Shown here: piece after piece, positions 29,235 through 30,765 of the stretch
How the letters are laid out: every line of letters starts with the position of its first letter
Position numbering within the stretch: position 1 is the stretch's first letter
Assembly (NCBI RefSeq): GCF_054482595.1
Contig: NZ_CM137008.1
Strand: one strand, 5' to 3'
Length of the DNA stretch: 64,000 nt
Position numbers and translations under genes: made by a program
Notes under the pieces: generated by a model
What the model saw: only the letters and a program-made list of their open reading frames with translations
What the model was told of the DNA's origin: nothing
Database searches by the model: none

Positions 29235-29593
29235 GCGTTCTCCAGTTCGGTGATTTTTATTCCAAGCCGTCCGCCTGGTACTTTCACACCACGAATTACG
29301 CGAATGTCATCGAATTGCTCGTCGTCTTCCGCAAATCCGGCGTGGATAAGGGAGTCGAGTAAACCTTTCAGGATATTATCGAGGTCGCGACGGCGGGAGT
29401 CTGGAACGTCTGCGATGACTTTGATGCGGAGTCGTGATTTGGTGAAAATATCTAACTTGAGTTGGTGGATGATTTGCTGAACGTCTTTTCGGTATTTCTG
29501 TCCTTTATCGCTGATGTAGTATTGGCTTCCCCGTCTTCGCCAGTAGGTATTCACCGACGGCGGGTATGGAAGCACAAACTGATATTCGTTCAT
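29231..29593 (-). CDS. rusA: Holliday junction resolvase RusA
   Basis: 120-aa ORF with DxxRRRDLDN motif characteristic of RusA. Confidence 0.85.
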   Translation of the reverse strand: MNEYQFVLPYPPSVNTYWRRRGSQYYISDKGQKYRKDVQQIIHQLKLDIFTKSRLRIKVIADVPDSRRRDLDNILKGLLDSLIHAGFAEDDEQFDDIRVIRGVKVPGGRLGIKITELENA

Positions 29594-29778
29594 GACTTAA
29601 TCTTCCCCTCCTTCAGCAGTATCGCCTGCGTCCTGATCACGCCTTCGAGGTGGTAAAGTCTGGCGTCTTTGTTGTCGAGGTTATGGGTGCGTCGGTCGAT
29701 TTCATCGTGACACGCGCTACAAGCCCATGCGCCGATCAGGTCGTCAGGCTTCATTCCCGTTCCGCAAATTCCAGCCAT
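29590..29778 (-). CDS. Small Cys-containing nin-region protein (possibly DUF1364/YbcO-like; may start upstream at a non-ATG codon)
   Basis: 62-aa ORF with CSACHDEID motif, 4-nt overlap with rusA. Confidence 0.4.
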   Translation of the reverse strand: MAGICGTGMKPDDLIGAWACSACHDEIDRRTHNLDNKDARLYHLEGVIRTQAILLKEGKIKS

Positions 29779-29879
29779 CCGGTAATGTGCCAGAACTGTA
29801 GTTTCAGGATTGCCATTGCATATGCCGTAAATACGTACCTAGCATTCTCTGCCGCGAGATTCTTTGCGTAGGTTAGCCA

Positions 29880-30602
29880 TTAAGCAGCCTCCCCTGTTAC
29901 TTTCAGCATTCCGTTATCGAGCAGCTTTCTGGTCAGCCACTGTTGACCACGCCCGGTGATTTTTGTGGTGAACGATATCTGTATTCCGTGATTTGTGTTG
30001 ACCGCTGTTTCTTTCACTGTGAAATAGCCGCGATCCATATATTCCTGCATTGGCACATTGCGCCGGGAACCTGAAGCAATAAGGATTTTGTGATCGCGCA
30101 TCCACGCAAACAGTTTGTTTGGACCAATACCAACAACCTTTGCAAAGTTTCCAATCAAAATTCCGCTGGCCTCGCCAACGCGATCGGCAAACTCAACTTT
30201 AGGTGCGGCAATTGCGAGCTGGTTTTCCAGTTGCATTTTCTGCTCAGCAAGATCAGCAGCAAGGCGCAACGCTTCCGGTAACGTTTTGGGGATATTAACC
30301 GCAGTTTCTTCAAGCTCTCGCCAACGGTCAACAAGACGAGCGGTGAACTCTGGCGACAACTGGGCAACAACGACAATACTGTCTCGCTTACCTTGTTCGC
30401 CCTCGAAGACGTAATGCTCGTACTGAACATTGAACCCTAAGTTATTGATTCTTTCGGAAACCTCAATTTGAGGAAGCCGGATAACACCATTTTTAGCCAG
30501 CGTTTCGATGGTACGTTTCACATTGTCATGACGCTTACCCACCAACTCAGCTATTTCAATGCTTGTCATTTTGATGGCATTGCCATTTATTAACTCATTC
30601 AT
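29880..30602 (-). CDS. Rha/antirepressor-like phage regulatory protein occupying the ninG position
   Basis: 240-aa ORF; N-terminal region resembles Rha-type phage regulatory proteins; not lambda NinG. Confidence 0.6.
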   Translation of the reverse strand: MNELINGNAIKMTSIEIAELVGKRHDNVKRTIETLAKNGVIRLPQIEVSERINNLGFNVQYEHYVFEGEQGKRDSIVVVAQLSPEFTARLVDRWRELEETAVNIPKTLPEALRLAADLAEQKMQLENQLAIAAPKVEFADRVGEASGILIGNFAKVVGIGPNKLFAWMRDHKILIASGSRRNVPMQEYMDRGYFTVKETAVNTNHGIQISFTTKITGRGQQWLTRKLLDNGMLKVTGEAA

Positions 30603-30765
30603 CGTCTTCTTCCTCGTACATTGAGCTATTCGGATCGCTCATCAGTTCTGCGCAGCAGTGCTCACACACGTGAACTTCCAGCATATGCAGCTTCTGACCG
30701 CAGTTAGCGCACGTTAAAGCCCGCTCGACACTTCCTTGTTCGTAACTTCGATTTTGGTCAATCAC
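30595..30765 (-). CDS. ninF: NinF (GTG start, about 56 aa; below ORF-track threshold)
   Basis: Manual minus-strand translation [12 protein letters not shown] ... [18 protein letters not shown]; ends approximate. Confidence 0.5.

Follow-up and report, generated by a model that had tools for sequence, protein, structure and literature searches.

What stands between ninF and Q in this DNA, where lambda carries ninG, ninH, and ninI, and what does the 240 amino acid protein encoded there contribute? The window, by which we mean the whole 64,000-nucleotide stretch that was analyzed, is most simply described as a lambdoid mosaic carrying a block of the HK620/HK022 type, in which the 240 amino acid protein, Roi, would be an extra regulatory module acting via a dyad and an IHF site in its own gene; we give this joint reading a probability of roughly 85%.

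Gene order and ancestry of the block

The initial annotation described a lambda-like ninB-C-D-E-F series followed by the 240 amino acid gene, a small ORF, rusA, and ninH. That order is present and Pfam assigns each gene (Table 1); the lambda-type overlaps that it pointed out are borne out by the coordinates, with 4 nt at ninB/C, ninC/D, and ninE/F, and 34 nt at ninD/E. In addition, roi shares 8 nt with ninF and 1 nt with ybcO, and ninH overlaps Q by 4 nt. The CI, Cro, CII, and N families were all found in the window, the N-peptide family gene being at 37336-37680, and the tR2-like terminator upstream of ninB would make transcription of the nin genes, roi among them, dependent on antitermination by N. 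RusA was the sole match in an NCBIfam search, and PADLOC gave no defense-system match to Roi, YbcO, RusA, or NinH.

Table 1. Features of the nin region and of the roi and ybcO genes, in window coordinates.
Feature	Position	Strand	Basis or remark
tR2-like intrinsic terminator, upstream of ninB	32415-32438	minus	8-bp GC-rich stem, then T run
ninB	31950-32390	minus	Pfam NinB; lambda type
ninC	31081-31953	minus	Pfam PAPS_reduct; protein 100% identical to lambda NinC
ninD	30911-31084	minus	Pfam NinD; lambda type
ninE	30762-30944	minus	Pfam NinE
ninF	30595-30765	minus	Pfam NinF
ninE-ninF, left-hand homology containing the mosaic joint	30595-30944	minus	common to lambda and HK620/HK022
roi (240-aa ORF)	29880-30602	minus	Pfam ANT/KilAC and Phage_pRha
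hypervariable roi patch, aa ~22-63	30405-30540	minus	recognition helix, loop, wing; at least 5 allele types
perfect dyad CCTCAAaTTGAGG in roi, candidate Roi operator	30461-30473	minus	roi nt 130-142, codons P44-E47
IHF consensus AATCAATAACTTA (WATCAANNNNTTR)	30438-30450	minus	17 nt downstream of dyad center
ybcO/DUF1364 frame, 96 codons, with amber	29590-29880	minus	Pfam YbcO; HK022 alignment
TAG (amber), ybcO codon 14	29839-29841	minus	CAG (Gln) in relatives
62-aa ORF, C-terminal part of ybcO frame	29590-29778	minus	Pfam YbcO profile positions 34-91
rusA, 120 aa	29231-29593	minus	Pfam RusA
ninH, HK97/HK022-type allele, 62 aa	29046-29234	minus	Pfam Phage_NinH, E 2e-24
Q antiterminator, lambda type	28426-29049	minus	Pfam Antiterm

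Working in the direction of transcription, the window is 98.4% identical to lambda at the nucleotide level from 32500 to 30600, has no match to lambda from 30599 to 29060, and is again 97.8% identical to it on the Q side, from 29059 to 28326. From 30937 to 28301, nucleotide identity is 97.4% to HK620 and 95% to HK022. Absent from the window is the ninG-ninH-ninI segment of lambda (lambda 42435-43874), and its site is occupied by roi-ybcO(gp66/HkbD)-rusA-ninH of the HK620/HK022/HK97 type. Judged by these alignments, the stretch is an ordinary lambdoid mosaic, in which a known roi-ybcO-rusA-ninH block is joined to lambda-type neighbors. The block would have been gained by homologous recombination in sequence common to both parents, ninE-ninF at the left and Q at the right; such exchanges are driven by flanking homology (PMC3945230).

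The description of the nin region as remodeled was overstated, as the genes from ninE to Q follow the published HK620/HK022 arrangement at 95-97% nucleotide identity. The block is real but already known, having been a nin-region variant since the HK022, HK97, and HK620 genome papers. Of 5,426 complete E. coli genomes, 584 contain the roi and ybcO segment (at least 80% coverage).

The nuclease genes and an amber codon in ybcO

Two replacements had been proposed, the 240 amino acid gene for ninG and rusA for ninI. The former does not hold, because roi is directly followed by ninG in 933W, in PhiR12_2, and in one IMG/VR locus (L067). The alternative to ninG is rather ybcO together with rusA, with Roi as an independent module; the roi-ybcO-rusA order is found in 76 of the 80 IMG/VR loci carrying the Roi allele of the window. 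The latter is right as to the absence of NinI: a tblastn search of the 64-kb window with lambda NinI revealed no homologue, the best hit having an E value of 0.46 and not lying between ninH and Q. It is wrong as to the exchange, since rusA lies upstream of ninH and elsewhere coexists with ninI, rusA and a lambda-type ninI occurring together in three of the 80 loci (L070, L079, and one more). The ninI gene is simply missing, as in HK022, HK97, and HK620. The true functional swap in the nin region is NinG/Rap versus YbcO plus RusA, with Roi and NinI as independent optional modules.

In such a swap, the structure-specific nuclease role of lambda Rap/NinG would be supplied by RusA, with its usual partner YbcO. 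Residues 1-119 of the RusA of the window align with PDB 1q8r (E 9e-26) and the protein matches PF05866; D70, D72, and D91, which after work by Bolt and colleagues in 1999 are said to be the catalytic aspartates of E. coli RusA, can all be read from its sequence. The NinH protein is 56% identical to that of lambda. YbcO/DUF1364 is described as a His-Me finger adjoining rusA, Q, and an antirepressor-like gene (PMC5714182).

The small Cys-rich protein of the initial annotation is not the product of a gene of its own: its 62 amino acid ORF is the tail of a 96-codon ybcO/DUF1364 frame with an ATG at 29880, in which codon 14 has changed from CAG to TAG. When Q is restored at that codon, residues 1-95 align with YbcO (PDB 3g27) with an E value of 7e-40. 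Among 5,426 complete E. coli genomes, 16 carry the TAG allele and 723 the CAG allele; every one of the 76 IMG/VR copies reads CAG, and TAG was found in no phage record. Because of the TAG, ybcO in the window is a pseudogene or the source of a truncated product.

It might be argued that the TAG is a sequencing error, or a deliberate read-through codon, and that YbcO is still made. The remaining frame is intact and a single base away from intact copies (L020 is 99.66% identical), and PGAP calls an 80 amino acid protein from an ATT start. We consider this very improbable. An identical TAG is shared by 16 independent complete genomes and is therefore not a read error, there is no sign of a suppressor, and a product restarted after the stop would be without Cys13 of the conserved N-terminal CxxxxxxxC (3g27 alignment). 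Annotation pipelines can mask a nonsense-mutated ybcO through a shortened gene call.

Roi and the hypervariable patch in its gene

The 240 amino acid protein is 88% identical to HK022 Roi over its full length (E 2e-158), its residues 1-137 match HK620 Roi at 100% identity, and its gene occupies the same place as in HK022 and HK620: in the P-Q interval, immediately behind ninF and ahead of the resolvase gene. On this evidence, the gene is roi, and its product is the protein already named "DNA-binding protein Roi". The Rha/antirepressor-like domain call made earlier was correct: Phage_pRha covers residues 12-99 (E 6.3e-09, a modest 36.7 bits versus a cut-off of 29.9) and ANT (KilAC, PF03374) residues 126-228 (E 7.7e-33), and there is a weak match to the Rha-like phrog_518 (E 2.5e-4). 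The helix-turn-helix domain present is an N-terminal winged HTH of the Rha type, and the AF2 model (pLDDT 89) has two modules (β-H-H-β-β / H-H-H-β-β-H) connected by a long helix over residues 108-144. A relative is encoded on 552 IMG/VR contigs, and 7,159 representatives of 50%-identity clusters match Roi; one locus (L147) has lost roi through an in-frame deletion that joins roi codons 1-22 to ybcO.

The KilAC domain, together with a match to PHROG 63 ("anti-repressor Ant") and the PGAP name "phage antirepressor KilAC domain-containing protein", invites the reading that Roi is a true antirepressor, which would bind and inactivate a CI-type repressor, either its own or one from a co-resident prophage, and thereby affect immunity during induction, an effect raised in the initial annotation. 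Residues 73-137 are, moreover, 53% identical to P1 Ant1, a genuine antirepressor, so that a protein-protein mode is possible for Roi. However, "antirepressor" labels on Roi-type proteins have been transferred from the domain name and not from a test, and they should not be taken as function. There is also no control region proper to roi: the gene overlaps ninF, a sequence scan found no promoter-like site upstream of it, and it lies inside the pR operon behind tR2, so that inactivation of the resident repressor would have to precede the synthesis of Roi. Genera such as Jedunavirus, Jerseyvirus, and Mohonavirus/ICP1 include phages with homologues; these are lytic phages not known to have a repressor to counter. 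Finally, in the passages of PMC3430580 and PMC4587872 that draw on Clerget & Boccard 1996, the functional description is of a DNA-binding protein harming lytic growth in IHF-deficient hosts. An antirepressor function is, on balance, improbable.

That the protein is instead a diverged NinG/Rap, the nin region then not being truly remodeled, has its position right after ninF as the sole point in its favor. The profile search that the initial annotation named as its refuting test gave no PF05766 match in the protein, whereas ANT and Phage_pRha pass the Pfam cut-offs; a tblastn search with lambda NinG found no homologue in the whole 64-kb window, and in 933W and PhiR12_2 roi and ninG are adjacent separate genes. 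We regard this idea as refuted. Roi is an extra regulatory module and no substitute for NinG.

The site through which this module might act lies within roi. The dyad listed in Table 1 is the top palindrome among 440 candidate centers; it is paired in 25 of 30 cells over five allele types, with two compensatory pairs, and has a synonymous-shuffle P of 0.023. In 8 of 12 genes there was more pairing than synonymous shuffles would predict (P 0.002-0.04; combined 3e-7, the genes not being independent). The dyad sits at a fixed codon position, with arms that vary by lineage in step with the recognition helix: DNVKR[TS] is paired with CTC[AC]A.T[TG]GAG, DKVKQS with CCCCA.TGGGG, and xNVK[VI]S with CTGCA.TGCAG, a co-variation seen across Escherichia, Klebsiella, Vibrio, and Acinetobacter phages. 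In the 933W-type and APSE-2 alleles the dyad is weak, and Jerseyvirus and Pseudomonas members of the Roi family have none. The IHF consensus WATCAANNNNTTR occupies the same alignment column in the HK022, mEpX2, and PhiR12_2 alleles, within a patch that is only ~50% identical, and is kept in three of the four E. coli roi allele types.

These features suggest a circuit in which roi would be read as part of the delayed-early pR operon once N antitermination has set in, and a Roi dimer would bind the 13-bp dyad in its own gene, adjoining the IHF site. IHF bending would modulate the complex, which in turn would tune the level of Roi itself or read-through towards Q. In hosts lacking IHF, the activity of Roi would become damaging to lytic growth, the phenotype published for HK022; the Rha proteins of phi80 and P22 show this IHF dependence too, blocking phage growth in IHF-deficient hosts (PMC4936722). 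A length of 13 bp is short for a winged-HTH dimer and counts against the putative binding. We tentatively propose, while rating it somewhat likelier to be wrong than right, that the hypervariable patch is a self-contained specificity cassette, comprising the recognition helix and its own dyad operator ~25-70 bp downstream (plus the IHF site in E. coli lambdoid alleles). If this is true, a patch swap would exchange an autoregulatory circuit as a unit, like a miniature immunity region. The tracking of the recognition helix by the dyad is in itself a modest lead on DNA recognition by Roi/Rha-type regulators.

The dyad might of course be no protein site at all, and instead a by-product of a conserved peptide motif, P-x-[MIL]-[EGQV], or a small RNA hairpin that acts on translation or on the stability of the mRNA. 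Synonymous shuffles already reach 2.1-4.5 of 6 pairs, which means that the amino acid sequence alone favors dyad symmetry; an RNA stem of 5 bp with a 3-nt loop is physically possible; and helix and dyad are ~60 nt apart, so that their co-variation could be linkage by descent. Nevertheless, as noted above, pairing exceeds the shuffle expectation in most of the genes, and at two pairs both partners change from one allele to another. The peptide varies (PQIE, PALQ, PPMV, PPMG, TPME) with the symmetry kept, and such mismatches as occur are C-C or C-T and not of the G-U type. We therefore think it unlikely, though well worth bearing in mind, that the dyad serves no protein.

The type-A dyad of the window resembles two lambda ori iterons. 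A general link between Roi dyads and origin iterons was rejected, because the HK022 dyad has no near-match in the HK022 O gene, and HK620 has a type-A dyad, yet its O is annotated as HK022/VT2-Sa-like and not as that of lambda. A terminator-like hairpin in roi at 30164-30180 was taken as chance, since the scan yielded 5 sites against 5.2 expected.

Comparison with known systems

Roi shares the KilAC domain with P1 Ant1/KilA and differs from them in its N-terminal domain; conversely, its N-terminal Phage_pRha domain (the modest Pfam match) is common to the Rha proteins of phi80 and P22, and its C-terminal half is KilAC. Unlike genes of the P1 Ant1/P22 Ant type, roi has no dedicated, tightly repressed control region of the immunity-I type and lies in the pR operon. 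The DLP12 prophage of E. coli K-12 carries the same ybcO-rusA pair (the source of 3g27 and 1q8r), and of the two only the ybcO of the window has TAG at codon 14. With the lambda nin region (ninB-C-D-E-F-G-H-I-Q), the window shares ninB to ninF, Q, and tR2 and pR'-like elements, and it is without ninG (rap), a lambda-type ninH, and ninI. In HK022 and HK97, roi-gp66-gp67(RusA)-gp68(NinH)-Q forms the same cassette at 95% nucleotide identity; HK022 roi has the IHF consensus at the same position, whereas its patch (aa ~22-63) is another allele, whose recognition helix is SRHSNVKVSIDRLVKRG and whose dyad reads CTGCAtTGCAG. HK620 (AF335538: ninB-ninE-ninF-roi-HkbD-rus-ninH-Q) agrees with the window in gene content and gene order from ninE to Q; the window adds ninC and ninD of lambda type, an O/P/ren replication module likewise of lambda type, and the amber codon in the HkbD/ybcO gene.

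Gene order and identity of the 240-residue ORF

The minus strand carries all genes of the region, and because gene order, overlaps, and the Pfam and tblastn results agree, the initial annotation's description of it is confirmed: Pfam recognizes each gene, the overlaps of 4 nt and 34 nt that it quoted are correct, and tblastn found no homologue of lambda NinG or NinI in the whole 64-kb window. Its interpretation was partly right, at the domain level. The 240-residue protein, called Rha/antirepressor-like, does contain ANT/KilAC (residues 126-228, E 7.7e-33) and Phage_pRha (residues 12-99, E 6.3e-09) matches; the Pfam search gave no NinG match, and the refuting alternative of a diverged NinG fails.

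Judged by sequence, the gene is roi. HK022 Roi is 88% identical to its product (E 2e-158), residues 1-137 are 100% identical to an HK620 protein annotated "DNA-binding protein Roi", and Roi-named homologues occupy the equivalent place in HK97, mEpX2, 933W, and many Stx phages. The family comprises at least 7,354 proteins at E<=1e-5 (8,000 candidates scored, 90%-clustered database), the two closest 240-residue clusters holding 2,355 and 1,265 member sequences, and 7,159 further representatives of 50%-identity clusters match Roi.

Positions of features in the window
Feature	Position	Strand	Remark
O	33449-34348	-	first in transcription order, then P, ren
ninB	31950-32390	-	Pfam
ninC	31081-31953	-	Pfam
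ninD	30911-31084	-	Pfam
ninE	30762-30944	-	Pfam
ninF	30595-30765	-	Pfam
240-aa ORF (roi)	29880-30602	-	Pfam
62-aa ORF	29590-29778	-	Pfam
rusA	29231-29593	-	Pfam
ninH	29046-29234	-	Pfam
Q	28426-29049	-	Pfam
TAG in ybcO frame	29839-29841	-	codon 14, within 29590-29880
Perfect 13-bp dyad	30461-30473	-	CCTCAAaTTGAGG, roi codons 44-47
IHF consensus	30438-30450	-	WATCAANNNNTTR
Second perfect 13-bp palindrome	30574-30586	-	ATGGCAaTGCCAT, roi nt 17-29
Two ori iterons in O	33941-33953, 33985-33997	-	
Lysis genes	27189-27867	-	
pL-arm accessory genes	37697-38278	-	
	43222-44019	+	
	35939-36957	+	
Prophage end	44711-48819		
Integrase	44907-45980		357 aa, lambda/HK022-type
914-aa ORF	46075-48819		directly adjoins integrase

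An amber allele of ybcO and the modules around roi

The ORF following roi had been described as a small Cys-rich protein. A 62-residue ORF is indeed present, but it is not a gene of its own: its frame extends upstream to an ATG at 29880, overlapping the roi stop as TAATG, and this ybcO frame reads MANLRKESRGREC, a TAG, and then VRIYGICNGN…. The ORF is thus part of a rare ybcO nonsense allele rather than a distinct small gene. HK022 has CAG at the TAG site, and the 96-residue product with Q restored aligns to the YbcO structure 3g27 over residues 1-95 (E 7e-40). All 76 ybcO copies in IMG/VR carry CAG and an intact frame, and one of them differs from the window by a single base, the one in question. 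Using a 55-mer centered on the site, with every 28-nt seed forced to span it, the TAG allele was found in 16 of 5,426 E. coli genomes and the CAG allele in 723; this search found TAG in no phage record. RefSeq/PGAP masks the mutation: in locus L001 (E. coli T28R, NZ_CP049353.1), at locus positions 3789-4031, the interrupted gene is called an intact 80-residue "DUF1364 domain-containing protein" with an ATT start just past the TAG. The rare amber allele is one of two remaining points of mild interest. NZ_CP130669.1 (E. coli SM107, a 111,450-bp record) appears to be the sole plasmid-counted match in the amber-allele search; its positions 41983-46033 are 100% identical to window 28400-32450. The record may represent a phage-plasmid, but contig misassignment or a piece of chromosome left unplaced would also explain it.

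The claims that the 240-residue gene replaces ninG and that rusA replaces ninI do not hold, and given a census of 80 IMG/VR loci with this Roi allele and the layouts of 933W and PhiR12_2, both were positional impressions and not module logic. The order roi-ybcO-rusA occurs in 76 of the 80 loci, and ninC or ninD is present in few, but in one locus roi is followed by lambda-type ninG, as it is directly in 933W and PhiR12_2, and in three rusA is followed by lambda-type ninH and ninI. In addition, a natural in-frame deletion in IMGVR_UViG_2778261535_000012 joins roi codons 1-22 to ybcO codon 3 (…AELVG|NLRKEA…); roi can therefore be cleanly lost and is dispensable. Because of these roi-ninG neighbors and this deletion, Roi is a module that is both optional and independent. 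It is YbcO plus RusA that take the place of NinG/Rap, and NinI, absent here, is another optional module. Rap, like RusA, is a junction-specific nuclease. YbcO (DUF1364) is a His-Me finger protein whose typical neighbors are rusA, Q, and an "antirepressor" (PMC5714182).

Roi expression and a dyad within its gene

The prophage has CI (S24 plus HTH), Cro, CII, and an N-family antiterminator, together with a lambda/HK022-type integrase, and the terminator immediately upstream of ninB is of the tR2 type; this makes roi a delayed-early member of the pR operon, as had been assumed. At the prophage end, xis and the integrase are followed by an ORF that we take from its sequence to be the sensor kinase TorS, so that the prophage would have integrated at the torS-torT site, where HK022 attaches. 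Accessory genes of the pL arm encode a homologue of SieB (superinfection exclusion) and a fusion of dATP/dGTP pyrophosphohydrolase with DUF551; in addition there are two ORFs (111 and 227 residues) just after the CI gene, at the lambda rexA/rexB position.

That Roi is an antirepressor is improbable. The KilAC domain, transferred antirepressor names, and 53% identity to P1 Ant1 over residues 73-137 speak for it, but roi has no dedicated control region, it is expressed only once the resident repressor is gone, and some of its homologues belong to virulent phages (Jedunavirus, Jerseyvirus, and ICP1). An AlphaFold model (63 diverse homologues, pLDDT 89) predicts, from the N terminus, a β-H-H-β-β module (residues 11-67), helices as far as residue 101, and one long helix (108-144), with an H-H-H-β-β-H module (150-229) at the C terminus. 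Foldseek found no PDB relative. The matches, though weak, fit DNA binding. Two papers implicate Roi, a DNA-binding protein, in lytic growth, which it inhibits in IHF mutants (PMC3430580, PMC4587872), and the phi80 and P22 Rha proteins have the same IHF-linked phenotype (PMC4936722).

The 5' and 3' parts of roi alleles are near-identical, but a patch at residues ~22-63, including the recognition helix and wing, differs sharply and exists in at least five types. Inside it lies an IHF consensus, whose column is the same in three of the four types from E. coli, and centered 17 nt upstream is a perfect dyad in the window/HK620 (type-A) allele. The dyad center is roi nt 136 in all E. coli alleles compared, with differing arms (CTGCAtTGCAG in HK022, CCcCCAaTGGtGG in PhiR12_2). 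Clerget and Boccard are said to have reported in 1996 a Roi-bound site inside roi itself, near an IHF site. Over the five allele types, 25 of 30 dyad cells are paired, two pairs being altered on both sides, and this was the best variable center among 300 tested (mean 7.6, sd 4.5). We also compared 17 Roi-family genes from phages of Escherichia, Klebsiella, Vibrio, Acinetobacter, Aeromonas, Iodobacter, Pseudomonas, and Salmonella. In 11 of them a dyad with at least 5/6 pairs lies no farther than ±4 nt from the homologous codon, and in 10 of those 11 no palindrome of nt 40-260 is better. Dyads with lineage-specific arms at this codon occur in the distant phages KpV79, Vibrio P3, ICP1, Acinetobacter RM_A1, and mEp044; the Jerseyvirus and Pseudomonas members of the set have no dyad, and it is weak in the 933W and APSE-2 types.

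The arms track the recognition-helix motif: CTC[AC]A with DNVKR[TS], CCCCA with DKVKQS, and CTGCA with xNVK[VI]S. We regard the dyad as a candidate Roi operator, with a probability of roughly 0.35-0.5. Alternatively, it may be a by-product of coding or form a hairpin in RNA, or its link to the helix may reflect common descent. As a coding control, we ran synonymous shuffles with protein sequence and codon usage fixed; in 8 of 12 genes these equaled the symmetry of the real sequence with P 0.002-0.04. Fisher's combined P is 3e-7 over the shuffled genes, which are not independent. This helix-linked dyad is the second remaining point of mild interest.

The second palindrome, at the invariant 5' end of roi, is kept in E. 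coli alleles, with a single mismatch in the types of 933W and PhiR12_2. Of the four lambda-type ori iterons, two resemble the window dyad (ATCCCTCAAATTGGGGGA, one mismatch to the 13-mer; ATCCCTCAAAACGAGGGA, two); no such match to the HK022 dyad was found in the HK022 O gene, and the resemblance may be chance, or may permit cross-binding only where a lambda ori is combined with a type-A roi. The HK022 dyad CTGCATTGCAG has seven matches in its genome at <=1 mismatch (1.4 expected; 0 of 100 shuffles reach seven), including 31234-31244, 31327-31337, 33662-33672, and 21010-21020, two of which are 93 bp apart inside P; these are possible additional Roi sites.

Distribution and mosaic structure

The ninE-to-Q arrangement is already known and widespread: 584 of 5,426 complete E. 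coli genomes carry the roi-ybcO segment at >=80% coverage. When ninB through Q is taken as a whole, lambda-type ninC and ninD included, the combination occurs in 21 genomes, three of them 100% identical, and none of the phage records in the collection reaches >=80% coverage. The exact mosaic is thus uncommon, but its every module and junction is already known.

By blastn against lambda, HK620, and HK022, lambda is 98.4% identical to window 32500-30600, ninC being nearly without mismatches, and 97.8% identical to 29059-28326 (Q), with no lambda match found at 30599-29060; across 30937-28301, HK620 is 97.4% and HK022 95% identical. Lambda 42435-43874 (ninG, ninH, ninI) has therefore been substituted by a roi–ybcO–rusA–ninH block of HK620/HK022 type. 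The lysis genes downstream of the lambda-type Q are not those of lambda: the holin is a 67-residue protein, and the 167-residue endolysin, with its hydrophobic N-terminal segment, looks by eye like a SAR-type lysozyme. Their boundary, just after pR', is another mosaic joint. The exchanged segment is bracketed by ninE-ninF and Q, common to both parental types; this layout would be expected from homologous recombination within flanking homology, an experimentally shown source of lambdoid mosaics (PMC3945230).
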